A stretch of DNA of 64,000 nucleotides. It comes from Patescibacteria group bacterium (GTDB lineage Bacteria > Patescibacteriota > Microgenomatia > JAMCZE01). The translations under genes and the position numbers were made by a program. Shown here in pieces: positions 7,730-62,281 of the stretch. The number at the start of each line of letters is the position of its first letter. The first letter of the stretch is position 1. Below the pieces are notes generated by a model. It was given only the letters and a program-made list of their open reading frames with translations. It made no database searches and had not been told where the DNA came from. The DNA lies in contig JAMCRP010000001.1 of assembly GCA_023380635.1 (NCBI GenBank), positions 341,200 through 405,199 of the forward strand, read 5' to 3'.

Positions 7730-9112
7730 ATGCAATCACGACCACCCATTATTGTCGTCCTGGGTCATGTTGATCACGGCAAAACTACCCTTCTGGATGC
7801 GATCCGCAGTGCAGATGTAGCTTCAAAAGAATACGGCGGAATTACTCAGGGCATCGGAGCATATCAGGTAGAAACTCCCGACGGAAAAAAACTTACCTTT
7901 ATTGATACTCCCGGCCATGAAGCCTTTTCCCAAATGCGTTCGCGCGGAGCCAATGTTGCCGATATCGCGATTTTAGTCGTGGCCGCTAACGATTCTGTCA
8001 TGCCGCAAACTGCCGAAAGCATCAAAATTATCCAGGCTGCTAAAATTCCCTACATCGTGGCTATTAACAAAATTGATTTGCCCGAAGCCAATTTTGACAA
8101 AGTCGTTAAAGATTTATTGCGCCATAACGTTCTTCTGGAAACTTACGGCGGCAGCGTACCCTTTATTAAAATTTCCGCCAAGAAAAAAGAAGGCATTAAA
8201 GAACTTCTGGACTTAATCGGCTTAGTCGCGGATATTGCCGAGATAAAAAGCGACCCTAACGGTCCGTTGGAATTTGCCGTAATTGAGTCAAAACTGGACA
8301 AAAACCGCGGACCGGTGGCGACACTGGTTATCCGAAGCGGCTCCCTGAAAGTCGGCCAGGAAATTACGATTGATAATCAGACCAGTAAAATCCGGGCGCT
8401 GATTGATTATCAGGGCAAAAATATTGCCGAAGCTGGGCCAGGCACACCGGTAGAAGTCTTAGGTTTACAGAAGGTCCCGCCGGTAGGTGCGGCCAAAGAA
8501 GCCAAACCTCAGGTTAAAGCGGAAGAAGGCGCGCTTAACTTGATTTTAAAAACGGATACTTTGGGTTCATTGGAAGCTCTCAGCGCCCAAATTCCGGCCA
8601 ATGTTAATGTTTTGCAGTCCGGAACCGGAGAAATCAGCGAGGCGGACGTTTTATTGGCCAAACCGACTAAAGCTATCATTCTTGGCTTTAATGTGAGGGT
8701 TGCTCCGGCTGCTACCAAGCTTGCCCAGACGGAAAAAGTCTTAGTGCGAACATACAAGATAATTTATGAACTTCTCGATGAGCTTAAAGACGCGGCGGCC
8801 GGGATGCTGGCGCCGGAAACAACAGAGGAAGTCTTGGGCACGGGAGAAATTATTGCCGAGTTTCCTTACGAAAAAATGCGCGTGGCCGGCACCAAAGTCA
8901 CTGACGGACGGGTGGCGCGAGGCGATTTGGTGCGGGTAACCCGCCGGGTTTCAGGAGAAAACACGGCTGTCGGCGAAAGCAAAATCAAATCCCTGCGAAC
9001 CGGCAAAGAAGAGACCAATAAGGTCGAAAAAGGTAAAGAGTGCGGGATTTTACTGGAGCCTCAAATTGACTTCCGGGCCGGAGATGATATAATGGCCTAT
9101 AGAATTGTATGA
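7730..9112 (+). CDS. infB: Translation initiation factor IF-2, compact 460-aa form starting at the G domain
   Basis: Begins [19 protein letters not shown], with DTPGHEAF and NKID motifs and IF-2 C1/C2 domains. No N-terminal extension. Confidence 0.92.
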
Positions 9113-10026
9113 CCAACGAGGACCTGCAACAAATTCAAAATTTAGTCGCCGGCGCCCGCCGGGTGCTTATCTTAACCCACACCAACCCTTCCGTCGACAC
9201 CATGGCTTCTACTTTAGCTTTATATCTGGCAATGGCTAAAATGGGCAAAGACGTGACCGTGGCGATGGAATCTCAACCTCTGGTCGAGGTCGCCAATTTG
9301 GTGGGTATCGATCAAGTTAAAACCAGCCTGGCCGGAAAGAATCTGTTGTTAACTTATAAACCTTACAACCTGGGCGATTTTGAAAAAGTCACCTATCTGG
9401 AAGACCAGGGTCAGGCCGGAACCCTGGATGACGCTTTCAAACTGACAATTACTCCGCGCGAAGGTTACGCCCCGGATCCGAAGAATTTTACCTTTAGCTT
9501 TACCGGTGCTGCCGCCGATTTGATTTTTACCGTGGAAGTTTTGGAACCGACCCAGCTGGGTCAGCTTTATGACGCCAATTTGCTAGCTTCAACCCCGATT
9601 ATTAACATCGATAATCATGATCCGAACAAAGATTACGGCAAATTTAATCTGGTTGAACCGGACGCCGCTTCCATCTCGGAAATCGTGACCTTTTTCCTGC
9701 GGGCCGTGAATGCGCAGATCGACACCGACATCGCCGGGAATTTATATCAGGGTATTCGGGCTGCCACCCAAAATTTCCAGTCACCGAAAGTGGCGGCTGC
9801 CACCTTTGAAGCCGCGGCTATCTGCCTGAGAAGCGCTAAACCCAAAACTGCTCCTCAGCAGCCGGCTGTTCAACCAAATATGAACCAAGTCCCACCTACC
9901 CAGGCCAATCCAGTCCAACCACAAAATATACTAAATACTAATAATCAGCAACCAGCGTCCAGTAACCAGGGCGTTCCTTCCGACTGGCTCGGCCCCAAAT
10001 CTTACAAAGGCACTTCAGTTAGTTAG
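9109..10026 (+). CDS. DHH-family (NrnA-like) protein with degenerate catalytic motifs and a Q/P/N-rich C-terminal tail
   Basis: VLILTHTNPSVDTMAST sits where NrnA has HxxPDGDxxGS, and IDNHDP where DHH is expected. It occupies the usual nusA-infB-(rbfA/nrnA) slot. Confidence 0.55.
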   Translation: MTNEDLQQIQNLVAGARRVLILTHTNPSVDTMASTLALYLAMAKMGKDVTVAMESQPLVEVANLVGIDQVKTSLAGKNLLLTYKPYNLGDFEKVTYLEDQGQAGTLDDAFKLTITPREGYAPDPKNFTFSFTGAAADLIFTVEVLEPTQLGQLYDANLLASTPIINIDNHDPNKDYGKFNLVEPDAASISEIVTFFLRAVNAQIDTDIAGNLYQGIRAATQNFQSPKVAAATFEAAAICLRSAKPKTAPQQPAVQPNMNQVPPTQANPVQPQNILNTNNQQPASSNQGVPSDWLGPKSYKGTSVS

Positions 10027-10378: not shown

Positions 10379-12625
10379 ATGAAAAAAAGTATCACGAAAA
10401 AGATTGAAGTCGCAGGACGCGAACTCTCTTTCGAAATTAATAAAGTGGCACCACAAGCTAACGCGTCGGTGATCGCCCGCTATGGCGATACTGAGGTTTT
10501 AGCCACTGTTATGCTTGGCGCCGAAAAAGCTTACAGTGATGGCGGAGCTCCGGTTACCGTCGATTTTGTGGAAAGGCTTTACGCCGGCGGCATCATTAAG
10601 GGTTCCCGCTGGGTCAAACGCGAAGGCCGCCCGACCGATGAGGCCATTTTAACCAACCGGTTGATTGACCGCTCCATTCGCCCGCTCTTCCCTAAAGACA
10701 TGGCTAACGAAGTTCAGATTATTGTGACTTTGCTTTCCACCGACAACGCCAACGATCATGATGTTTTGGCTTTAAATGCGGTCTCTATGGCTTTGGCTGT
10801 TTCCAACATTCCCTGGAACGGGCCGGTCGCGGCTGTCCGGATGGGATATGTTTCCAAAGATGATGCCGGGTATGTGGTTAATCCTCTGACCCCGGAAATG
10901 GAATTTTCTGATTTAGATTTGGTCGTTTCTTCCAGCGCCGACGGCGTCATTATGATTGAAGCCGGAGCCAAGCAGCTGCCGGAAGACAAAGCTAATACTG
11001 CCGTGGAAAAAGCCCTGGAAGAAGACCAAAAAATTGTGGAGTTTATTAAAGATATCCAAAAAGAAGCCGGCCAGGATAAATATCCCTACAAATCCATAGC
11101 TTTGGACGAGGACCTGATCCACGAAATTGAAAAAAAGCATGGCAAAGAAATTGAAGAGTTTGTCGAAATCAAAAGCCCGGAGAGTAAGATGGACGGCTCG
11201 AGAGTGGAAGAATATAAAAAGGCTTTAACTGAAGAGTACGCGGAAAATCCTAACAAAAACCAGATTCCCCAAATTGTCGATTATCTGTTTAAAAAAGCTT
11301 TGCGCAAAAAGACCCTGGAAACCAAAAAACGGGTTGACGGCCGGAAATTCGCGGATATCCGCCCGATTTCTGCCGAAGTAGGACTGCTTCCCCGCACCCA
11401 CGGTTCCGGCTTATTCCAAAGAGGCTTAACCCAAGTGCTCTCCGTGGTCACTTTGGCAAATCCTTCTCTGGAACAATGGATTGAGACGGCGGAAGGCATG
11501 GAAGAAAAAAGATACATTCATCACTATAATGCCCCGCCGTATTCTTCCGGTGAAGTGGGCCGCATTGGCGGTTTAGGCCGGCGGGAAATTGGCCACGGTG
11601 CCCTCGCTGAAAGAGCTTTGGAACCGGTCATCCCGACTGAGGAACAATTCCCTTACACCATCCGCGTGGTTTCTGAAGTCTTGTCACAAAACGGCTCGAG
11701 TTCTATGGGTTCGACCTGCGGCTCAACTTTGGCTCTGATGGATGCGGGTGTACCGATTTTGGCTCCCGTTTCAGGCGTGGCCATGGGTCTGATTGCCGAA
11801 AGCACGAGTGAATATGCGATTTTAACCGACCTGCGCGGTGAAGAAGATTTTTACGGCAACATGGATTTTAAGGTTGCCGGAACCGAAACAGGCATTACTG
11901 CCATTCAGTTGGACATTAAATTAAATGATAAATTCCGCGGCTTGACCATGAAAATGGTTAAGGAAATTTTGGCTCAAGCCCGCGAAGGCCGGCTGGAAAT
12001 CTTAAAGAAAATGCTCGTGGTAATTCCGGAAAGCCGTAAAGCGGTCAGCCAATACGCGCCGAAAGTGGTCACGATGAAAATCCCGGTAGACAAAATCGGG
12101 GAAGTCATTGGCCCGGGCGGCAAAAACATCAAAAACATTATCGCGACAACCGGCGCCGCCGTGGACATTGAGGATGACGGCACGGTGACCATTTCCGCCA
12201 TCGATGAAGCTGCCGTCGAACAGGCCAGAGCCTGGATTGACGGTCAAACAAGGGAACTGCAACCCGGCGAAGAATTTGAAGGCGAAGTAAAACGCATTTT
12301 ACCGTTTGGCGCTTTTGTCGAAGTTTTGCCCGGCAAAGAGGGTCTGGTTCATGTTTCGAGAATGACTTCCGGTTATGTGGGCAACCCGGAAGAAGTGGTC
12401 CACATTGGCCAGAAAGTGAAAGTCCGGGTCATGGAAATTGACGAAATGGGCCGGCTTAACCTGGCTATGTACTGGGGCCCGAAAGACGAAAACGCTCAAC
12501 CGCCAATGGGCCAGCAACCGGGTGGCTTCCGACCACGCGGCGGTTTTAGCGGACCAAGACGCAGTGGCTTCGGCGGCAGAGGCGGCTTTGACAGAAATCG
12601 CGGCGGAAGACGAGACCGATATTAA
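10379..12625 (+). CDS. pnp: Polyribonucleotide nucleotidyltransferase (PNPase) with a C-terminal RGG/RG-rich tail
   Basis: Two RNase PH domains, KH (IGPGGKNIK) and S1 domains. The tail reads GGFRPRGGFSGPRRSGFGGRGGFDRNRGGRRDRY. Confidence 0.95.
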   Translation: MKKSITKKIEVAGRELSFEINKVAPQANASVIARYGDTEVLATVMLGAEKAYSDGGAPVTVDFVERLYAGGIIKGSRWVKREGRPTDEAILTNRLIDRSIRPLFPKDMANEVQIIVTLLSTDNANDHDVLALNAVSMALAVSNIPWNGPVAAVRMGYVSKDDAGYVVNPLTPEMEFSDLDLVVSSSADGVIMIEAGAKQLPEDKANTAVEKALEEDQKIVEFIKDIQKEAGQDKYPYKSIALDEDLIHEIEKKHGKEIEEFVEIKSPESKMDGSRVEEYKKALTEEYAENPNKNQIPQIVDYLFKKALRKKTLETKKRVDGRKFADIRPISAEVGLLPRTHGSGLFQRGLTQVLSVVTLANPSLEQWIETAEGMEEKRYIHHYNAPPYSSGEVGRIGGLGRREIGHGALAERALEPVIPTEEQFPYTIRVVSEVLSQNGSSSMGSTCGSTLALMDAGVPILAPVSGVAMGLIAESTSEYAILTDLRGEEDFYGNMDFKVAGTETGITAIQLDIKLNDKFRGLTMKMVKEILAQAREGRLEILKKMLVVIPESRKAVSQYAPKVVTMKIPVDKIGEVIGPGGKNIKNIIATTGAAVDIEDDGTVTISAIDEAAVEQARAWIDGQTRELQPGEEFEGEVKRILPFGAFVEVLPGKEGLVHVSRMTSGYVGNPEEVVHIGQKVKVRVMEIDEMGRLNLAMYWGPKDENAQPPMGQQPGGFRPRGGFSGPRRSGFGGRGGFDRNRGGRRDRY

Positions 12626-12681
12626 ACCTTTCTTACTTCCTTCCTATTGCCCTATTAATGTTGTTATCTAATATTTTTCTC

Positions 12682-12861
12682 ATGGCTAAATACGGCAAGA
12701 AGGCGCAAAAAACCATTTCTAAGGTGATGCACCAGTATGGCTTGGGAGAACTGAAAATCGGCGGCCACAGCAACAAAAAGGTCAAAAGCCGTAAACAAGC
12801 CGTGGCCATAGGCATTTCCAAAGCCCGCGCCGAAGGCGACAAAGTCCCCCGGAAAAGATAG
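12682..12861 (+). CDS. Small basic conserved protein of unknown function (~59 aa; SRKQAVAIGISKAR motif)
   Basis: The ORF-track frame begins at 12658. The ATG at 12682 gives MAKYGKKAQKTISKVMHQYGLGELK...; the family name is not certain. Confidence 0.5.
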   Translation: MAKYGKKAQKTISKVMHQYGLGELKIGGHSNKKVKSRKQAVAIGISKARAEGDKVPRKR

Positions 12862-12886: not shown

Positions 12887-13918
12887 ATGGATAACCCTCA
12901 GACTGGAGAGATTGCTGTACTACAACAAAAGATAGGAAGCGTCCAACTACCGCCGGAGTTGCTGGAAAAAGCTAAAGGCATGGTCGAACGGCTCGACCGG
13001 ATCGCCAAAATGGGCGGAAATTATGTTGTGGAGTTTGATAACACCAACCGGTACATTGACTGGATCACTGCCCTGCCCTGGAACAAAAAATCAGACGACA
13101 TTCTCGATTTAAATCATGCTAAGGAATTACTAAACAAAAAACACTACGGCCTGCAAAGCGCCAAGGAAAGAATTTTAGAATATTTAGCCGTAAGAAAACT
13201 AAACCCTTCCGGCCGGGCGCCGATTATGGCTTTAATTGGTCTTGTTGGTACCGGCAAGACAACTTTAGCTTCTTCCGTGGCCGAAGCCATGGGACGCAAA
13301 TTTGAAAGAATTCCCTTTGGCGGCATTGGCGATGCGTTGTACCTGAGAGGACAATCAAGAGCCTACCCGGATGCCGAACCAGGAGCGATTATCAAAGCCC
13401 TGCGCCGGGCGGGCACCAAAAATCCCGTTATTTTACTTGATGAAATTGACCGCGTGGATGAGGCTGCCAGAGCTACAATTATGGGTGTATTAGTAGAACT
13501 ATTGGATCCCGGCCAAAATAGCGCCTACACGGACCATTTTCTCGATTACCCGTTTGATCTATCTGAAGTGCTTTTCATTGTGACCGCCAACAACTCGACG
13601 AATATTTCTACGGCAGTACTCGACAGACTAGAACTAATCTCTATGCCGTCGTACTCTGACGAAGAAAAAATCACTATTGGAAAAGATTTCGTCTTACCTA
13701 GAGCTTTGGAAGAAGCCAAACTGACTGCGGACAAACTTTCCATTGACCAGGCAGTTTGGCCCAAAATTGTCCGGCCGCTGGGTTTTGACGGCGGCATTCG
13801 GACTTTAGAGCGGACCATCAATAATATGGTTCGCAAAACCGCTTTACAAATAGTTTCGGGAGAAGTGCAGCAAGTAACTATTAATGAACAAAACCTGCCG
13901 CAATACCTGCCGCAATAA
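12887..13918 (+). CDS. Lon-like AAA+ ATPase lacking both the N-terminal LON domain and the C-terminal S16 protease domain
   Basis: Near-collinear with the Lon ATPase module: Walker A GLVGTGKTT, Walker B ILLDEIDR, and LDRLELI. The ORF ends at a TAATG overlap with the udg start, so no protease domain is encoded downstream. Confidence 0.8.
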   Translation: MDNPQTGEIAVLQQKIGSVQLPPELLEKAKGMVERLDRIAKMGGNYVVEFDNTNRYIDWITALPWNKKSDDILDLNHAKELLNKKHYGLQSAKERILEYLAVRKLNPSGRAPIMALIGLVGTGKTTLASSVAEAMGRKFERIPFGGIGDALYLRGQSRAYPDAEPGAIIKALRRAGTKNPVILLDEIDRVDEAARATIMGVLVELLDPGQNSAYTDHFLDYPFDLSEVLFIVTANNSTNISTAVLDRLELISMPSYSDEEKITIGKDFVLPRALEEAKLTADKLSIDQAVWPKIVRPLGFDGGIRTLERTINNMVRKTALQIVSGEVQQVTINEQNLPQYLPQ

Positions 13919-14553
13919 TGGATAAACAACAGAAACTAGAAGAAATAGCTAAAGAAATAGCTGCGACCAAAGGCGGACCGATGGAATCTTTTGGCAGTAA
14001 CCCGGTTCCCGGCGAGGGCAATCCGGACAGCGAAGTCCTGTTTATTGGGGAAGCTCCGGGCTTTCATGAAAACCAACAAAGACGGCCGTTTGTCGGCGTG
14101 TCAGGACAATTACTACGCAAGACCATGGCTGCCAACGGCTTTAACGAAAAAGATGTTTTTATTACCAATATTGTTAAGTTCCGGCCGCCGGAAAACCGCG
14201 ACCCGACTCCGCAGGAGATCGAGTATTTCCGGCCATTTCTTGATGAACAGATTGAAGTTATCGATCCAAAGTTTATCGTCACTCTGGGAAGATACTCGAT
14301 GTATAAATTCCTGGGGCAAGGAGCCAGCATCACCAGAATTCACGGCCAACCCAGGACTATAAAATGGAACGGCAAAACTCGTATAATATTCCCAATGTTC
14401 CATCCGGCCGCGGCCCTGCGCGATCCGCACGTGATGCAGACATTCAAAGACGATTTCGCCAAGCTAAAAGAGTTGGTAGACAAACACGAAGCGACACAAA
14501 AAACTGAAGCGAAGGAAGAGAAAAAAGATAGCGAGCAGCTCAAACTAGTCTAA
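13918..14553 (+). CDS. udg: Uracil-DNA glycosylase, family 4/5 type
   Basis: Carries GEGNPDSEVLFIGEAPG, RPFVGVSGQLL and ITNIVKFRPPENRDPT, which are family-4 UDG motifs. Confidence 0.85.
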   Translation: MDKQQKLEEIAKEIAATKGGPMESFGSNPVPGEGNPDSEVLFIGEAPGFHENQQRRPFVGVSGQLLRKTMAANGFNEKDVFITNIVKFRPPENRDPTPQEIEYFRPFLDEQIEVIDPKFIVTLGRYSMYKFLGQGASITRIHGQPRTIKWNGKTRIIFPMFHPAAALRDPHVMQTFKDDFAKLKELVDKHEATQKTEAKEEKKDSEQLKLV

Positions 14554-14666: not shown

Positions 14667-16370
14667 ATGGCTTTTTTTAGCAGACCGAAACCAAAACAAC
14701 AAATGCAGACTTTCCAGGCTAAAGGCGAAAAACTGCGCATTATTTCCCTGGGCGGTGTCGATGTCACCAAAAACATGTATGTTTTTGAAACCGACCAGGA
14801 TATTATTATTGTCGATTGCGGTATCGCCTTTCCCGACGAAAATATGCCTGGGATCGATCTGATCATCCCCGACATCACCTACCTGAAGGATAAAAAGAAT
14901 AAGATCCGGGCGATGTTTTTAAGCCATGGCCACGAGGACCATCGCGGAGCCTTACCCTACATACTGCCGGAGTTACCACGAATTCCTATTTACGGCACAA
15001 AGTTAACCATCGGTCTTGCCCAGATTAAATGCGAAGAGGCCGGCATCAAGGCTGATTGGCGCGTTGCTGACTTAAAAAGTCCTATCCAGGCGGGCAGTTT
15101 TTCCGTCAGTTTTGTTCATGTCGCTCACTCAATTCCCGACTCCTCGAACCTGATTATTAAAACTCCGGCCGGTGTCGTCTATTACGGTTCTGATTTTAAG
15201 TTTGACTGGACCCCGGTTGACGGCTACCCAACGGAAGTGCAAAAGATTGCCAACGCCGGATATAACGGCGTGGAACTTTTAATGTCCGACTGCGTCCGGG
15301 TAGAAAAGTCCGGCTACACCCTCTCGGAACAAAAAATTGAGGAAACTTTTGAACAACAAATCCAAAAATGCCGGGGAAAGTTTTTTATTACAACAACATC
15401 ATCAAATATCAGCCGCATTCAACAGGCCGTCAATGTGGCCCAAAGACATAACCGCAAAATTGTTTTTGCCGGAAGAAGCATTGAACAAAACGCCGAGGTA
15501 GCCGTTCGCCTGGGCTATCTGACTTTGCCCAAAGACAAGATTATTCGGATTGAGGATGTTAGCCGCTATCCGGCAAACCAAATCATGGTTCTGGCGACCG
15601 GCTCTCAAGGACAGGACAATTCTGCTCTTTCTCGAATTGCCAACGGCGAACATAAGATAAAAATTAACGAAGGTGATGTGGTGGTCTTCTCTCAGGATCC
15701 GATTCCCGGCAGCGAATCGGCTGTCGACCAGCTGATTGACACCCTCATTAAAGCCGGAGCCGAAGTATATTATTCCGCCATCTTGGACGATGTCCATGTC
15801 TCCGGCCACGAAGCCGCGGACGGTTTGAAACTTATGCTTAATTTAGTCAAACCAAAATATGTCTGGCCAATTGGCGGCACCATTAGACATATTAAACACT
15901 ACGCCAAACTGGCGATCGATAGCGGCTATAAACCGGAACAGATTATTACTCCGTCCGAAGGCCAGATAGTTAACATCGAGAGTGGCAAAGCCAAAGTCGA
16001 CGGCTTTGTAGAAGTGAAAAATATTTTGATTGATGGTCTGGGCGTTGGTGATGTTGGCAATGTTGTTCTTCGCGACCGATTAACTATGTCCGCGGACGGA
16101 GTGGTTATGGTCATTGTGCCGGTAGAAAAAGCCACGGGCAAGATTGTGGGCAATGTGGATATTGTTTCCCGGGGATTTGTCTATATGAAAGAGTCAGATG
16201 AGCTAATCGGTGAAGCCAAACAAGTCGTCCGGGACACCCTCGCCGACCACCAAGGGCCCATGTCTGACTTCCGCTTTTTACGCCGACACATCACTGACCA
16301 TCTCGAGAAATTTCTCTTCGAAGCTACCCACCGCCGCCCCCTGATCCTTCCGGTAATTGTTGAAGTGTAA
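14667..16370 (+). CDS. rnj: Ribonuclease J (metallo-beta-lactamase / beta-CASP)
   Basis: HGHEDHRG motif, a beta-CASP region, and an RNase J C-terminal domain; 567 aa. Confidence 0.92.
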   Translation: MAFFSRPKPKQQMQTFQAKGEKLRIISLGGVDVTKNMYVFETDQDIIIVDCGIAFPDENMPGIDLIIPDITYLKDKKNKIRAMFLSHGHEDHRGALPYILPELPRIPIYGTKLTIGLAQIKCEEAGIKADWRVADLKSPIQAGSFSVSFVHVAHSIPDSSNLIIKTPAGVVYYGSDFKFDWTPVDGYPTEVQKIANAGYNGVELLMSDCVRVEKSGYTLSEQKIEETFEQQIQKCRGKFFITTTSSNISRIQQAVNVAQRHNRKIVFAGRSIEQNAEVAVRLGYLTLPKDKIIRIEDVSRYPANQIMVLATGSQGQDNSALSRIANGEHKIKINEGDVVVFSQDPIPGSESAVDQLIDTLIKAGAEVYYSAILDDVHVSGHEAADGLKLMLNLVKPKYVWPIGGTIRHIKHYAKLAIDSGYKPEQIITPSEGQIVNIESGKAKVDGFVEVKNILIDGLGVGDVGNVVLRDRLTMSADGVVMVIVPVEKATGKIVGNVDIVSRGFVYMKESDELIGEAKQVVRDTLADHQGPMSDFRFLRRHITDHLEKFLFEATHRRPLILPVIVEV

Positions 16371-24867: not shown

Positions 24868-26367
24868 TTATTTGGCGGTTTCAGCCACCCGTAGCTCCCG
24901 GATGACCGTAATTTTAATTTGCCCCGGAAATTCCTTAATTTCCTGTTCAATTCGCTCTTTAATTTTAAAGGCAATGGCAGCTGCTTCGTTATCGTTAACT
25001 TTTTCCGGAGAAACCAGGACTCGAACTTCCCGCCCGGCTTGAAAAACCCAAGCCTCCGAAACTCCCGAAAAACTTTTACAAATCTCTTCCAGTTGTTTCA
25101 TGCGTGTCAAATATCTTTCCAGGTCTTCATATCTGGCTCCTGGCCGTGATCCGGAAATAGCGTCAGCCAGATAGACGATCATCGACTCAGCCGAAGAGAA
25201 AGGTTTTTCTTCATGATGCTCTTCGACACAGGCAATAACTTTCTCTGGAATGCCAAACTTGCGCAAAAACTGAGCCCCCAAGGCAGCATGTGATCCTTCC
25301 TCGGAATCAATAACTTTTCCGATGTCGTGAAGTAAACATCCCAGACGAACGATATTTACATCCGCACCGATTTCCTGCGCGATGGCAATCCCGATTTTTG
25401 TTTCTTCCGTGGTATGAACAATCATGTTCTGGCCATAAGAGAAACGGTATTTGAATTTTCCCAGGAGCTCCACAATCGGCCGCGGCAGATTATAGACTCC
25501 GACACTGTGGCATAATTTTTCCCCTTCATCCGCAATAATTCTTTCAATTTCCCGCTTAACCTGAGCTACCACTTCTTCTATTCTTGCGGGTTGGATTCTG
25601 GTATCCCGGATCAAGCGTTCCAGGGAAACCCGGGCAACCTCCCGACGGACAGAATCAAAACTGGAAAGTCTAATCACTCCTTCTTCATCTAGTTCTACAT
25701 CCACTCCGGTCGCTTTCTCAAAAGCCCGGATATTGCGGCCTTCCTTACCGATAATTCTTCCTTTAACTTCTTCATTAGGAACAGTCACTGTAGAAACGGT
25801 ATATTCCGCCACCAGGTCCGTGGCTCCATGGATCATTTCGGAAACAATAATTTCCCTGGCTTTAGTATCGGCCTCTTCTTTGGCTTCGTCTAAAACTGCC
25901 CTGATCATCTTTCCGGCTTCGCTTCGGGAACTCTCTTCGACGGCTGATAGAATTTTTTCTTTGGCTTCGTCAACGGACAGGCCGGCAATTTTTTGCAACC
26001 GCGCAAGCTGATCAGCTTTAATTTTTTCAACTTCTTCCCGGGTTTGTTCGGTCTGCTGCAGCTGCGAATTTAAGCTGGCCGTTTTTTGATCTAAAGCCTC
26101 TTCTTTCTGGGCCAGACGTCTTTCCAGTTCCACTACTTCCTGACGTAACCTCCTGGCTTCGTCCTCGGCCGCCGCCCGGATTTTAATGGCTTCTTCCTTG
26201 GCCGCAAAAACAATCTCTCTGGCCTGAGTTTCGGCTTCAAAAGCCGCTTTACCGTCAGTTTTCGGCTCAGGTTTAAGGGGCAAGGTTTTAGCGCTACCGG
26301 CTCTATTAACGATTTTGTGGGTTTTGTTATTCCCGACTGTTCGGGTTAATCGCGAAAAAAATGACAT
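24868..26367 (-). CDS. rny: Ribonuclease Y
   Basis: N-terminal TM/coiled coil, a KH domain, and an HD domain (LLHDIGK). Confidence 0.92.
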   Translation of the reverse strand: MSFFSRLTRTVGNNKTHKIVNRAGSAKTLPLKPEPKTDGKAAFEAETQAREIVFAAKEEAIKIRAAAEDEARRLRQEVVELERRLAQKEEALDQKTASLNSQLQQTEQTREEVEKIKADQLARLQKIAGLSVDEAKEKILSAVEESSRSEAGKMIRAVLDEAKEEADTKAREIIVSEMIHGATDLVAEYTVSTVTVPNEEVKGRIIGKEGRNIRAFEKATGVDVELDEEGVIRLSSFDSVRREVARVSLERLIRDTRIQPARIEEVVAQVKREIERIIADEGEKLCHSVGVYNLPRPIVELLGKFKYRFSYGQNMIVHTTEETKIGIAIAQEIGADVNIVRLGCLLHDIGKVIDSEEGSHAALGAQFLRKFGIPEKVIACVEEHHEEKPFSSAESMIVYLADAISGSRPGARYEDLERYLTRMKQLEEICKSFSGVSEAWVFQAGREVRVLVSPEKVNDNEAAAIAFKIKERIEQEIKEFPGQIKITVIRELRVAETAK

Positions 26368-27933: not shown

Positions 27934-29010
27934 CTACTCTTCTTTTCCGTTTTCTTCGCCGATGACGACTTTTTCGGAAGCGGCGCCGGCTTTCACTTTT
28001 TTATAGATCTCATCCTCAATTTGCTTGGCGACTTTTTTGTTTTCCACCAGGAATTCCCGGGCGGCTTCGCGACCCTGGCCCAGCATGGTGTCCTTATATT
28101 TAAGGAAAGCGCCGGATTTCTGGATCACATCCAGTTCCACGCCAACATCAATCAGACCATCTTCATATGACGGACCGGAAGCGGAATAGATGTTAAATTC
28201 AGCAACCCTGAATGGGGGAGCCACTTTGTTTTTGACAACTTTTACTCTGTGCCGGCTACCAATAACGGTGTCCCCTTCTTTAAGCTGTTCAATCTTGCGG
28301 ATATCCATCCGCACCGACGCGTAGAATTTCAAAGCCAGACCGCCGGTGGTCGTTTCGGGGTTGCCAAACATGACCCCGATTTTCTGGCGCAACTGATTAG
28401 TGAAAATGCAGATGGTCTTTGATTTATTAATTACTCCGGTTAGTTTGCGCAAGGCCTGAGACATTAATCTGGCCTGAAGCCCCATCTGGGAATCGCCCAT
28501 TTCGCCCTCAATTTCCGCCTTAGGAACCAGCGCGGCCACGGAGTCAATTACGACAACATCAATTCCTCCGGAGCGGATCAAAGTTTCAGCAATTTCCAAT
28601 GCCTGCTCGCCGGTATCCGGTTGGGAAATCAGAAGTTCGTTTAAATTAACTCCCAGTTTTTCCGCCCATTGCGGATCAAGAGCGTGTTCTGCATCAATAA
28701 AGGCTGCCGCGCCACCCACTTTTTGGGCCTGGGCAATTAAAGTCAGCATAAGAGTTGTCTTTCCGGAAGCTTCAGGACCGTAAATTTCGATAATTCTGCC
28801 CCGCGGCAAACCGCCCACACCCAAAGCCAAATCTACGGGAAGAATACCTGTCGGAATTACATCAGTGGTCATTTTCGGAGCGGCTTCGCCCATTTTCATA
28901 ATTGAACCCTTGCCGTACTGCTTTTCGATCTGGTCCATAGCCAGTCTTATAGCGGCCAATTTGGGATTAGCTCCGGCTGAAGAAGTGTCGTCTCCTGTTC
29001 CTCTTGCCAT
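27934..29010 (-). CDS. recA: Recombinase RecA
   Basis: GPESSGKTT-type Walker A (here EASGKTT) and L1/L2 loops; 358 aa. Confidence 0.97.
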
Positions 29011-59319: not shown

Positions 59320-60020
59320 ATCTGTATTAATTTAGCCCGGATAATGCCCCGTTTCCAGATTGTTCCCGGGGGAACGCAGGTGATTAAAGTGACATAAGAG
59401 GTATCGAATTTTTGCTCCAGAACGGAAATATCGTCCGGATCGACCACTTTTTTGTCAAAAACCTGATAATGGTAACGGACTCCGTCGGAATTAATATAAA
59501 TATCGTCACCTTCGTTTAAATCCATGAGAAAAGTAAAAATCCCGGAATAATTTGTCGGGCTGGCAAACTGGGGCAGCTCCGAATGGCCGAAAATAATGTT
59601 ATTCCCCCACTGCCCCGGCCCCGGTGAAGTCGGCCAGGCAACCAGAGATTTTTTTAGGTCTCCGCCAACTACAACATTAGCACCGTTTATTTTCAATTTC
59701 GGGATAGTGAGGGTATAGGCTTTCGCCACCGCTGACTGTGCCGCTAATACTTGACCTGAATTGGCAAACCAGGTAGAAGGATCATAAGATTGGTCCTCCT
59801 GCGCCCGGACTAACGGCCCAAAGGTCGAAGCCAACGGAGAAACTATTTTTGTACTTACCGACGGCATGACAAAGAAATACCACCCGACCACCGGCCAGGC
59901 TGCCTGAAAAATTAAAAAAATCCCTAAAACCAATAACAGGAGTGAGAAAATTCCGGCGGTTTTCGGATGCCGACGGGGAGGCTTAATTACCCGGGCCGGT
60001 CCTTTTACATAAGTGTCCAT
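59316..60020 (-). CDS. Sortase-family transpeptidase (N-terminal membrane anchor)
   Basis: Catalytic His (IFGHSE) and the TLITC Cys motif, plus a downstream Arg. Confidence 0.75.
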   Translation of the reverse strand: MDTYVKGPARVIKPPRRHPKTAGIFSLLLLVLGIFLIFQAAWPVVGWYFFVMPSVSTKIVSPLASTFGPLVRAQEDQSYDPSTWFANSGQVLAAQSAVAKAYTLTIPKLKINGANVVVGGDLKKSLVAWPTSPGPGQWGNNIIFGHSELPQFASPTNYSGIFTFLMDLNEGDDIYINSDGVRYHYQVFDKKVVDPDDISVLEQKFDTSYVTLITCVPPGTIWKRGIIRAKLIQI

Positions 60021-62281
60021 TAATCAGTTACCGTTTCCAATTTTAAGTTTTGAGCACGCCAGGGGAGGAAGTAATTAATAATACTTTGGAAAACCCGAGG
60101 CTTTGCTTCGATATCAACACTGTCAACCCCTGTCTGGGCCGTCAAAATTTCCGTCGCTTTAGTCGGGTTCTTCCCGACAATCTCCCGACTTAGTTGATCC
60201 AAATCCACCTGAGGCAGCATTGAAGCCGCCAGTTGAACATCCAAAACGGCGTTTCCTGATTTATCCAGCTTCGTCGATTTAATCTCGGGTTTAGCCGTAT
60301 CTTTGGCCAAATAGTAACCAGAGGGGACATCGCTGCCAAATTTTTCCAGGAATTTATCGGTCAAATCATCCCGGGAAACAGTTACCCCTTTAAAATTAAT
60401 TGTCAGATCGAGGCTGACCATATCGGCTTCAGCATCAACATCTTTAGAATAGCGTTTTTGAGTAATTTGCGAAGTTATGGCGTTAGGTAAAAGAGTCTGA
60501 CCGCTGTCCAGCTTGGTATTAAGATCGGCGGCAGCTTTTTGCTGCAGTTCCGCCGAAAGCGTCGCCAGCAGTCGATCCTGGTCGGCTTTTGTTACTACCG
60601 TCGCTTCGTGACTGTTACCTCCGGTTAAAGCCGCGTCATTTTTAGCCTGATAGGAACTGCTGGAAAAACTGCCAATGGTAAACAGAGTTCCGGCCGGCAG
60701 GTTATACTTATCCCCGATATCGGCCCCGGTAATCGCGGCGGTCGCAGTCACCTGAGAAGCTGCCCCCGAACCGGACGCCACGGATACATCACTGTTTAAA
60801 GTGAATTTTAATCCTTGCGGCGAGGTTAAAACGGTACCCGCCGAAAAGTTTTTGCTATCAGCCGTGCTATAAATTGTCACGCTGCCGTGCGCCTTGTCCC
60901 CGACCAGTTTGTTTCCCGTGGCCACGCTTTTCTTGGTTCCCATTTCTGACACGCTGACCATTTGTCCCGAAATTGTCGCTTCCATTTCCCGGTCAAAAGT
61001 TTCCGGTTTCAGATGAATAATTACCTTAGCCTGAGGCACCAGGTAGATTATTAATCCCCCGGCCACAAGAATCACCGCCAAGACCGCGGCCGCCAGAAAC
61101 ACCGGAACCGGCGGTTTTTTGGAAGAAAATGCCGGCGCGTTCACATTTACCATCTTTTTGTTTGGTTTCAGATTTTTAACCTGGGCCAAAATTTTTTCGA
61201 TCATAGGATTAAGACTGCCAAAAATTTTTTTAAAATTAACCTTAGGCATCATCTTGGGCGCTTCAGCCTTAAACGGCATCGCCGGAACCGCCCTTTCCTC
61301 ATGGGTCATCTCCTGTAATTTCCCGAAGTCTCCGTCGGTCACAAAACCGGCTTCTTCGGCAGTTACTTCTTCCAGCTCCGGTTCTATCCCTTCTTCCATT
61401 TCTTCAATTGCCTTTGCCTCCCGGACCTTTTCTTCTTCATTCTCTGCGTTATTTTTTCTTTCTTCTATCTTCTTTTCCGGCTCCCCTTCTTCCGCCGGGG
61501 CGCCCATCACATCAATTCTTCCTCCCATCTGTGTTCCTCCGGCAATGGCAATCGCTTTGACAATGAGGTCCCCGGACAAAACTTCTACCCGCGGGAAATG
61601 CAAAAAAGGTAAACTTTTTGTCCAGGGATGAGCCATGATTTTTTCTTCCAGAGTCTTAAGATCCCGGCGCCCATCATAAAGAATAATTCTGGCCGGAAGC
61701 ACCTCTACCTGGGTAAACCGGCGCAAGGCCACTTCGATTCCGGCAGCCAGATTATTTACTCCGTCCGCGCTTTCCGGAATCGGAATCGTTCCCAAATTTT
61801 TGCCGGCTCTAAAAAGCGTGACCCAGCCGTTATCTCCGTCCAGACCAACTAAAACCGCGGTTAACGGTGCTCCTTCCGTTTCTTTCAGATAGTTTTCCAA
61901 AGCTTCAAAAAGCTGGACATAACCCAGGGGTCGCAAATCAAGTTCCTTACAAAGTTTGCGTAAAAGCTGCAGTTTCTCAGTGATAATTTTTCCCTCATTA
62001 ATCCAATCCGGGCTAACCCCAAAAATAGTTTTGGCTGCCGGTAATTGCCTTTCTCCTAAAGCCGTCGAAACTGCCGCATCTGCTGCCGCAAGCAGTCCTT
62101 CATAACTTTGACTGTCAATCTTCTCGCCGCCGGTATTTTCCACCACCACCCGACCTTCCGAAACAGCCCAAACCGTGGCCAGAACCTCCGTCGAAGAAAT
62201 TTTTACTGCCAGATACTGCTCTGCCGACTCTGACCGGGCAGATTTCCCTCCCACGCGAGAAAGAACGGAACTTAAATCCAT
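60020..62281 (-). CDS. 753-aa fusion protein: degenerate PilM/FtsA-like actin-fold N-domain, acidic linker, single TM, ~350-aa Ser/Thr/Ala-rich extracytoplasmic domain
   Basis: The N-terminus resembles PilM/FtsA but lacks a canonical DxGxxxxK phosphate-1 motif. The TM is VPVFLAAAVLAVILVAGGLIIYL. Translationally coupled (ATGA) to the sortase gene. Confidence 0.45.
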   Translation of the reverse strand: MDLSSVLSRVGGKSARSESAEQYLAVKISSTEVLATVWAVSEGRVVVENTGGEKIDSQSYEGLLAAADAAVSTALGERQLPAAKTIFGVSPDWINEGKIITEKLQLLRKLCKELDLRPLGYVQLFEALENYLKETEGAPLTAVLVGLDGDNGWVTLFRAGKNLGTIPIPESADGVNNLAAGIEVALRRFTQVEVLPARIILYDGRRDLKTLEEKIMAHPWTKSLPFLHFPRVEVLSGDLIVKAIAIAGGTQMGGRIDVMGAPAEEGEPEKKIEERKNNAENEEEKVREAKAIEEMEEGIEPELEEVTAEEAGFVTDGDFGKLQEMTHEERAVPAMPFKAEAPKMMPKVNFKKIFGSLNPMIEKILAQVKNLKPNKKMVNVNAPAFSSKKPPVPVFLAAAVLAVILVAGGLIIYLVPQAKVIIHLKPETFDREMEATISGQMVSVSEMGTKKSVATGNKLVGDKAHGSVTIYSTADSKNFSAGTVLTSPQGLKFTLNSDVSVASGSGAASQVTATAAITGADIGDKYNLPAGTLFTIGSFSSSSYQAKNDAALTGGNSHEATVVTKADQDRLLATLSAELQQKAAADLNTKLDSGQTLLPNAITSQITQKRYSKDVDAEADMVSLDLTINFKGVTVSRDDLTDKFLEKFGSDVPSGYYLAKDTAKPEIKSTKLDKSGNAVLDVQLAASMLPQVDLDQLSREIVGKNPTKATEILTAQTGVDSVDIEAKPRVFQSIINYFLPWRAQNLKLETVTD

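Follow-up and report, generated by a model that had tools for sequence, protein, structure and literature searches.

Lon is defined as an AAA+ motor fused to a protease in one chain, and a gene that breaks this definition raises the question of what such a motor might be doing by itself. The gene considered here, referred to as gene X, lies within a 64-kb stretch of DNA (the window) from a Patescibacteria group bacterium, contig JAMCRP010000001.1, in which an ATG-initiated open reading frame (ORF) encodes a protein of 343 amino acids (aa) (Table 1). The original prediction had described this product as collinear with the helical region and the ATPase of Lon, with neither of the flanking Lon domains attached. 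The analysis presented here finds that X is a natural and complete protein of the LonA lineage, made up of a three-helix bundle, an AAA+ nucleotide-binding domain and a lid. From its conserved features, it is rather probable that X represents a LonA-derived, oligomeric, ATP-hydrolysing and non-proteolytic remodeller that grips its substrates in a non-canonical manner. We will deal with the architecture of the protein and its family, then with the changes found in its pore loops and lid, and finally with its gene neighbourhood and its relation to known systems.

A LonA module without its flanking domains

Pfam identifies AAA (aa 114-250) and Lon_lid (aa 275-327, E=1.8e-8) in the protein and no other domain, apart from weak ClpA and AAA_2 matches (Pfam/NCBIfam); neither the LON N-terminal domain (PF02190) nor Lon_C (PF05362) is matched in it. 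The NCBIfam model TIGR00763 'lon' aligns over model positions 255-572 of 795 and reaches 333.8 bits, short of its cut-off of 608; NF008053 likewise gives 259 bits, its cut-off being 891. All matches of X to PDB sequences are to LonA or LONP1 and cover query residues 5-341, in agreement with the predicted collinearity, the best being B. subtilis LonA 3m6a (E=2e-81). When E. coli Lon (EcLon) is compared by tblastn with all six frames of the window, the match is limited to Lon 246-579 (38% identity, E=3e-73), and with the N region (1-245) or the protease (P) domain (585-784) as query no frame yields a match with an E value below 0.4. The absence of both domains from the product, as well as the claim that no protease could be encoded downstream in any frame, is thereby borne out. 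The protein begins level with EcLon ~244, with a DUF6496 protein encoded by the ORF upstream, and stops ~15 aa past the Lon lid. The last A of its TAA stop codon (13916-13918) is shared with the ATG of udg, so the TAATG overlap that had been reported is indeed present in the sequence. Extending the tblastn search to ±10 kb of X in 84 orthologous loci (1.37 Mb) reveals no EcLon N or P domain; the single weak match (L018, E=0.04) is spurious and lies inside rnj.

The fold of X was modelled with AlphaFold2 on the basis of 54 homologues (mean predicted local distance difference test score, pLDDT, 90.1; predicted TM-score, pTM, 0.83). The model contains helices at aa 4-17, 23-41 and 47-62, followed by the alpha/beta nucleotide-binding domain and then the helical lid. 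EcLon 247-300, 6n2i, 3m6a and 4ypl all align with the three-helix bundle, which is equivalent to alpha8-alpha10 of LonA, the helices that make up the C-terminal part of HI(CC) and are also called NTD3H (domain definition: PMC6722904). In a Foldseek search of the PDB the top chains are all LonA or LONP1, with TM-scores normalized to the query (TMq) of 0.80-0.90, and the alignment with 6n2i, the EcLon fragment 235-584, runs end to end (TMq 0.88; normalized to the target, TMt, 0.89). This fragment, obtained by limited proteolysis, consists of the same part of HI(CC) together with the AAA+ module, and its crystals contain bound ADP and an open helical hexamer packing (PMC6722904). Because the match to this proteolysis fragment is end to end, X closely resembles a known autonomous folding unit of LonA. 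The boundaries of 6n2i are nearly those of X, which aligns to Lon 244/246-580, but 6n2i was made in the laboratory and has the pore loops of LonA, whereas X is a natural product in which both the pore loops and the lid have been remodelled.

The best 120 database relatives of X share 62-100% identity with it, are all 328-378 aa long and come from Microgenomates-type bacteria of the candidate phyla radiation (CPR, or Patescibacteria), where they are filed either as 'AAA family ATPase' (NCBI) or as 'ATP-dependent Lon protease' (JGI). Among the GTDB species representatives scanned, 266 encode relatives of X, and the best 80 of these 266 loci (54-86% identity to X) are spread over Gottesman-, Levy-, Shapiro-, Ames-, Woese-, Beckwith- and Daviesbacteria and unnamed Patescibacteria. 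The Microgenomates proteins are termed here subfamily A, represented by 82 complete ORFs of 311-420 aa from orthologous loci. A second protease-less subfamily, B, is 41-51% identical to X; a search seeded with one of its members gave 120 proteins of 320-628 aa from WWE3 and other Patescibacteria, marked by the motif GLQGVGKT[ST], by D-K for D-R after Walker B and by a 2-residue insertion in pore loop 2. The nearest full-length LonA proteins, as judged by an exhaustive representative search, are 43-45% identical to X and belong to Clostridiales and Negativicutes; it was this search that first brought up subfamily B.

The family members also share their C-terminal boundary. Homologues that carry the family signature end 0-6 aa after the C-terminus of X, save the divergent P0163 and P0181, which run on for 72 and 193 aa, and the 120 proteins of subfamily B end no more than 4 residues past it. 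A number of short homologues (P0172, P0183, P0201, P0218, P0233 and P0256) were considered as contig-end fragments; they are true LonA proteins, complete or truncated, with LonA-type motifs and 84-244 aa past the lid. At the other end there is greater variation, with tails of 100-335 aa preceding the three-helix bundle in P0140, P0141, P0142, P0310, P0312, P0336 and P0346. The N-terminal tails of the longer family members are Q/P/N/S/T-rich, of low complexity and free of Pfam matches, on which grounds they were rejected as relict LON domains; they may act as flexible tethers or recognition regions in place of the LON N domain.

The residues of the ATPase machinery were compared by aligning the 82 subfamily A proteins with 62 LonA sequences, and by aligning the 120 subfamily B proteins separately to X. 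The Walker A and Walker B motifs that had been read as intact, GLVGTGKTT and (V)ILLDEIDR, are found as described, and within them none of the 202 family members (82/82 and 120/120) deviates at G118, G121, G123, K124 and T125 or at D185 and E186. The same is true of sensor-1 N235, the arginine finger R247 and sensor-2 R305, the residues that the original prediction had singled out for checking. In the base loop of the PS1-beta-hairpin, D207 is conserved at 100% and P208 at 98-100% across the family. The equivalents of these residues in Meiothermus taiwanensis LonA (MtaLonA) bind and hydrolyse ATP across subunit interfaces, and R484 of that enzyme is the arginine finger seen experimentally (PMC8503904). 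Two Walker A residues, L119 and T126, are specific to the family, LonA having P and S at these positions.

Pairwise codon comparisons of X give proportions of nonsynonymous differences (pN) of 0.10-0.18 and of synonymous differences (pS) of 0.76-0.83, which are quoted in place of dN/dS because the synonymous sites are saturated, and X is under strong purifying selection. The mean identity between the family and LonA is 38%, compared with 41% among LonA sequences, and since the distance from the family to LonA is about that within LonA, the ATPase core is evidently still under constraint. The idea that X is a decaying remnant, or an assembly artefact, of a full-length lon gene draws on its truncated architecture and on nothing else, and is extremely improbable given that an intact UDG gene begins at its stop codon and that pN is far below pS. 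Because 82 plus 120 independently assembled orthologues share their C-terminus, to within 0-6 residues, and their ATPase residues, X is neither an assembly artefact nor a pseudogene, and the assertion that it is no simple frameshift pseudogene stands. Of the two circumstances that had been named as telling against the gene being genuine, an assembly error at 13.9 kb concealing a protease domain is contradicted by more than 200 orthologues from separate assemblies that stop alike, and a loss of ATPase residues by the invariance of the catalytic residues in 202/202.

The remodelled pore loops and lid

In MtaLonA, Tyr397 and Trp431 (pore loop 2) contact the substrate and are needed for its degradation (PMC8503904), and it is in these loops that the X family departs from LonA. 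At the pore-loop-1 position LonA has Y in 62/62 sequences. In subfamily A the commonest residues are F (22 of the 82), R (21), Y (17) and H (16), and in subfamily B they are I (27 of the 120), L (21), F (21), V (13) and D (10). X itself reads Y160-P-D, and so keeps the tyrosine. The next two residues, [VI]-G in LonA, are in subfamily A Pro (51/82) and then Asp/Glu (78/82), and in subfamily B Pro (67/120) or Glu (37/120) and then Gly (74/120) or Glu/Ala/Asp. The loop motif is accordingly HRRTY[VI]GAMPG in LonA versus QSRxx[PAS][DE]AEPG in subfamily A, with x-x-x-A-E-P-G in subfamily B (A163 111/120; P165 and G166 both 120/120), and at the level of the family Y-[VI]-G has changed to x-P-[DEG]-A-E-P-G. 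The AEPG motif is absent from LonA; its G166 is invariant, and E164 is found in 77/82 of subfamily A and 118/120 of subfamily B.

Pore loop 2 is changed in a similar manner. Its aromatic position, F/Y in LonA, is mainly A in subfamily A (58, with T in 11 and S in 6) and is L in 120/120 of subfamily B, and the G-D-P of LonA is replaced. On these alignments, both pore-loop aromatic motifs are replaced throughout the family by new motifs that are themselves conserved. The lid of the family carries the signature W291...R296-P297-L298-G299-[FY]-D301, of which W291, P297, G299 and D301 do not vary in either subfamily; the corresponding residues of LonA are [LI]...Y-T-R-E. M199 of pore loop 2 and N336 are likewise invariant in both subfamilies and new relative to LonA. 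As the two subfamilies share these derived characters, a single origin of the protease-less family is suggested.

These changes have to be set against the possibility that X is a canonical stand-alone unfoldase or disaggregase, which would thread polypeptides in the manner of ClpX or ClpB and release them undegraded. Lon/Pim1 with a dead protease retains chaperone-like activity, the family descends from a translocase, and in X the ATPase machinery and the oligomer-dependent residues are fully intact and Tyr160 is kept. Across the family, however, F/Y occupies the pore-loop-1 position in 39/82 of subfamily A and F in 21/120 of subfamily B, the hydrophobic-Gly pair has given way to Pro followed by Asp/Glu (A) or mostly Gly (B), and the pore-loop-2 aromatic, whose MtaLonA counterpart is among the substrate-contacting residues, has become Ala or Leu. 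A canonical unfoldase is thus an unlikely description of X. Where the original prediction had proposed a stand-alone unfoldase/chaperone or a regulatory ATPase, the stand-alone ATPase is upheld, but the unfoldase option is weakened by aromatics that are not conserved in the family, even though X has Tyr160.

A further possibility is that Lon has been split, with X forming the ATPase subunit and an S16 domain, encoded elsewhere in the genome, docking in trans. X does end exactly at the LonA lid/protease junction, with the junction segment kept (N336 invariant; ...[FY]-L-P), and the inspected part of the genome amounts to 64 kb, the contig being no shorter than 559 kb. Yet split genes are normally adjacent, and the 84 loci contain no S16-like sequence within 10 kb on either side of X; moreover, both of the pore-loop aromatics that would feed a protease chamber have been lost family-wide, and the lid displays a new invariant signature and not a preserved LonA surface. 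We consider a split Lon to be quite improbable.

A non-proteolytic remodeller accommodates these observations in the following way. X derives from a LonA that has lost both its N-terminal LON substrate-recognition domain and its C-terminal S16 protease, and within the CPR the Microgenomates/WWE3 branch keeps the remaining module as a gene of housekeeping grade. X would assemble as a Lon-like hexameric ring or spiral, because the invariant trans-acting arginine finger and the base loop of the PS1-beta-hairpin make sense in an oligomer only, and because EcLon 235-584, its equivalent, packs as an open hexamer. It is predicted to hydrolyse ATP, and the energy would be spent on remodelling, holding or releasing one or more clients without degrading them. 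The client would be gripped by the rebuilt acidic, Pro-containing pore loops together with the new lid surface, in place of the canonical Tyr staircase by which a polypeptide is threaded into the chamber of a protease.

Several points weigh against this reading. The stability of the LonA hexamer owes much to the protease ring, and as this ring is absent X may assemble weakly or require a partner. Some ability to thread polypeptides may persist, since X and about half of subfamily A keep an aromatic (Y/F) in pore loop 1. A separately encoded S16 protease might dock in trans, the search for S16 having covered the window and the 84 flanks. Finally, X is about as well conserved as its housekeeping neighbours, its median identity in the same loci being 57%, compared with 61% for S15, 56% for FtsK, 54% for PNPase, 48% for IF-2 and 45% for RNase J, but this comparison is biased because the loci were picked by their similarity to X.

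The gene neighbourhood

In the window, X forms part of an array in which all the genes lie on the forward strand in the order dnaK-dnaJ-nusA-infB-DHH-rpsO-pnp-DUF6496-X-udg-rnj-ftsK. The neighbourhood was compared in 81 non-redundant loci. In 70/81 of them pnp precedes X in the same orientation, at a median distance of 128 nt, and in 73/81 rnj follows it, again on the same strand, at a median distance of 66 nt, the distance to rnj being less than 1 kb in 68 loci. The array rpsO-pnp-X-(udg)-rnj-ftsK is deeply conserved. The udg gene stands between X and rnj in 16/81 loci, and on this account the TAATG coupling is a local detail; the pnp-X-udg-rnj arrangement is found too in the WWE3 loci L086 and L088. 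A simple scan of the gaps from pnp to rnj in the window located no terminator-like site, and none that is promoter-like was seen by the same means directly 5' of X. X is probably co-transcribed with pnp and rnj, to which the short same-strand gaps and the lack of a terminator-like site in that scan point, if weakly.

Table 1. Positions of gene X, its functional elements and its neighbours within the window.
Feature	Coordinates	Strand	Basis
Gene X, stand-alone LonA-type module (three-helix bundle + AAA+ nucleotide-binding domain + Lon lid)	12887..13918	+	ORF, Pfam, PDB matches aa 5-341, AlphaFold2 model
N-terminal three-helix bundle, aa 4-62	12896..13072	+	Model helices; alignment to EcLon 247-300
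Walker A GLVGTGKTT, aa 118-126	13238..13264	+	Invariant residues
Pore loop 1, remodelled, LRGQSRAYPDAEPG, aa 153-166	13343..13384	+	Alignment versus LonA
Walker B VILLDEIDR, aa 181-189	13427..13453	+	D185, E186 invariant in both subfamilies
Pore loop 2, remodelled, RVDEAARATIMGV, aa 189-201	13451..13489	+	Alignment versus LonA
Sensor-1 Asn235	13589..13591	+	Aligns to EcLon N473
Trans-acting arginine finger Arg247	13625..13627	+	Aligns to EcLon R484
Lon lid (small alpha domain), aa 258-330	13658..13876	+	Pfam Lon_lid
Sensor-2 Arg305, inside Lon lid	13799-13801	+	Invariant
TAATG stop/start overlap, X with udg	13916..13920	+	Read from sequence
pnp (PNPase), conserved upstream neighbour	10379..12625	+	Pfam; upstream on same strand in 70/81 loci
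udg (uracil-DNA glycosylase superfamily), facultative neighbour	13918..14553	+	Pfam UDG E=2e-35
rnj (RNase J), conserved downstream neighbour	14667..16370	+	Pfam RNase_J_b_CASP, RNase_J_C

The constancy of this position suggests a role for X as a nucleic acid-linked motor, in which it would serve as the ATPase accessory of RNA decay by PNPase/RNase J or of UDG-linked DNA repair and remodel either the enzymes or their nucleic acid substrates. LonA itself binds nucleic acids. X sits between pnp and rnj with short gaps in most of the 81 Microgenomates loci and is found there also in WWE3, at 41-51% identity. Where rearrangement has detached it, in L087 (a complete genome) and in the Woesebacteria loci L042 and L051, it still lies ~4-6 kb from pnp. 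In addition, 37/82 of subfamily A have Arg or His where LonA has its Tyr. Against this, the whole block nusA-infB-rpsO-pnp-X-rnj-ftsK is syntenic, and adjacency to two RNases may be mere inherited gene order, which renders it suggestive but not compelling. The protein is acidic (pI 5.6, net charge -4), affording no support for nucleic acid binding from bulk charge, the rebuilt pore loop has conserved Asp/Glu, and no nucleic acid-binding domain is detected in X by Pfam. A dedicated nucleic acid motor is therefore held to be a doubtful assignment, of low probability.

A role as an anti-phage defence ATPase was considered as well and rejected. PADLOC gives weak generic AAA matches alone for X (DolB, E=5e-10) and no specific defence-system match, and the genomic context is one of core housekeeping genes.

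A number of other features of the region merit a brief description. The spacer between pnp and X holds a 67-aa DUF6496 ORF at 12658..12861 (+) (Pfam E=1e-18), which, as it is present in 1/84 orthologous loci (L001, from the same organism as the window), is taken to be a recent insertion. A gene for a DHH-family phosphoesterase, 9109..10026 (+), overlaps the end of infB and separates it from rpsO; it is kept in most orthologous loci, and in many bacteria this place is occupied by rbfA/truB. Beginning with a TTG, the longest ftsK ORF has 14 nt (16357..16370) in common with the end of rnj and encodes 737 aa; in L001 ftsK has been called from a start further along, giving 725 aa. The genes for RNase Y (RNase_Y_N + KH + HD) and RecA lie ~11-15 kb downstream, at 24868..26367 (-) and 27934..29010 (-), so that three major RNases, PNPase, RNase J and RNase Y, are encoded within 16 kb. 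Further away, aa 460-559 of a 752-aa ORF at 60020..62281 (-) show a weak Baseplate_J-like match (E=4e-6), and the ORF may encode a phage-tail or contractile-system-like protein. In the databases, many third-party annotation (TPA) records of metagenome-assembled genomes entitled 'uncultured Gammaproteobacteria' or 'Pseudomonadales' (L006-L012, L015, L018, L029 and others) carry X in the Microgenomates gene order, and their titles look taxonomically wrong.

Relation to known systems and significance

The closest described proteins are the LonA proteases (MEROPS S16) of E. coli, B. subtilis, M. taiwanensis and human (LONP1), to which X is 38-45% identical over the bundle, the nucleotide-binding domain and the lid. 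They have in common the fold (TM 0.80-0.90), the Walker A and B motifs, sensor-1, the arginine finger, sensor-2, the base loop of the PS1-beta-hairpin and the Lon-specific lid. Unlike LonA, X possesses no LON N domain, no long coiled-coil part of HI(CC) and no S16 Ser-Lys protease domain, and its family has neither a conserved pore-loop-1 Tyr nor a conserved pore-loop-2 aromatic, has a W...RPxG[FY]D lid and, for X, a TIGR00763 score below the cut-off.

LonB, LonC and LonBA belong to the same superfamily and, like X, are without the LonA N domain. In these proteins, though, the AAA+ module, which bears a membrane insertion in LonB and is degenerate in LonC, shares its chain with an S16 domain. 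X does not have an S16 domain, and it has the LonA-specific three-helix bundle. LonC, with its degenerate ATPase and active protease, is the mirror image of X. Between LonA and LonB, the two that had been recommended for comparison, X sides with the former: the alignment is LonA-type, and the NCBIfam scan of X returned no LonB or LonC model among its matches. As the alignment with LonA is collinear, there is no transmembrane insertion in the AAA+ domain of X. Every described Lon subfamily keeps a fused protease (PMC9569914). With the protease, the N domain, the pore-loop Tyr motif and the score cut-off all failing, X is a LonA derivative that falls outside all described Lon subfamilies.

Among other members of the same AAA+ clade (HCLR), NBD2 of ClpB/Hsp104 and ClpX are, like X, stand-alone ATPases, and the HI(CC)+AAA+ region of LonA has been related to H1/M+NBD2 of ClpB by Rotanova et al. 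(PMC6722904). ClpB/Hsp104 and ClpX keep an aromatic pore-loop motif, which the X family does not. The HCLR ring features D207/P208 and the trans-acting R247 are conserved in the X family, their roles being taken from MtaLonA. Motor or chaperone function kept without proteolysis has precedents in the proteolytically inactive FtsHi of plastids and in the protease-independent chaperone activity of Lon/Pim1. In both of these the dead protease domain is still present, whereas in X it has been deleted cleanly, and the N domain with it.

The exhaustive search also brought to light a different departure from the usual arrangement. Its top-scoring matches, P0121-P0134 and P0150, are proteins of 900-3900 aa, and the five that were scanned (P0121, P0122, P0123, P0128 and P0129) have 2-3 tandem Lon-type AAA+ modules followed by one Lon_C domain.

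Neither a LonA module devoid of its protease nor Lon in CPR/Patescibacteria is described in the literature searched, although the coverage of such a search is no proof of absence. Sequences of the X family are already public, under names that are generic or misleading. The label 'ATP-dependent Lon protease', as applied to this family, is an annotation error, and because several pipelines assign it to these proteins, reconstructions of proteostasis in the CPR may wrongly credit these organisms with Lon proteolysis.

X is also a tractable protein, being small, confidently modelled and matched by a crystallized fragment of E. coli Lon, and it is well suited to the study of pore-loop chemistry versus AAA+ function. 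The constant placing of its gene, with pnp on one side and rnj on the other, hints at a client and can be put to a direct test. At its most speculative, and with little likelihood attached to it for the present, the proposal would be that a CPR branch comprising Microgenomates, WWE3 and their relatives converted LonA into an AAA+ motor that is free of the protease and has non-aromatic pore loops, its gene being locked between those of PNPase and RNase J. There it would act as the ATP-driven remodelling subunit of a minimal degradosome-like RNA decay complex, or of another non-proteolytic housekeeping complex, and the organisms themselves would have no Lon proteolysis at all. Spread as it is across a lineage, the X family constitutes a natural experiment on what the Lon motor does alone.

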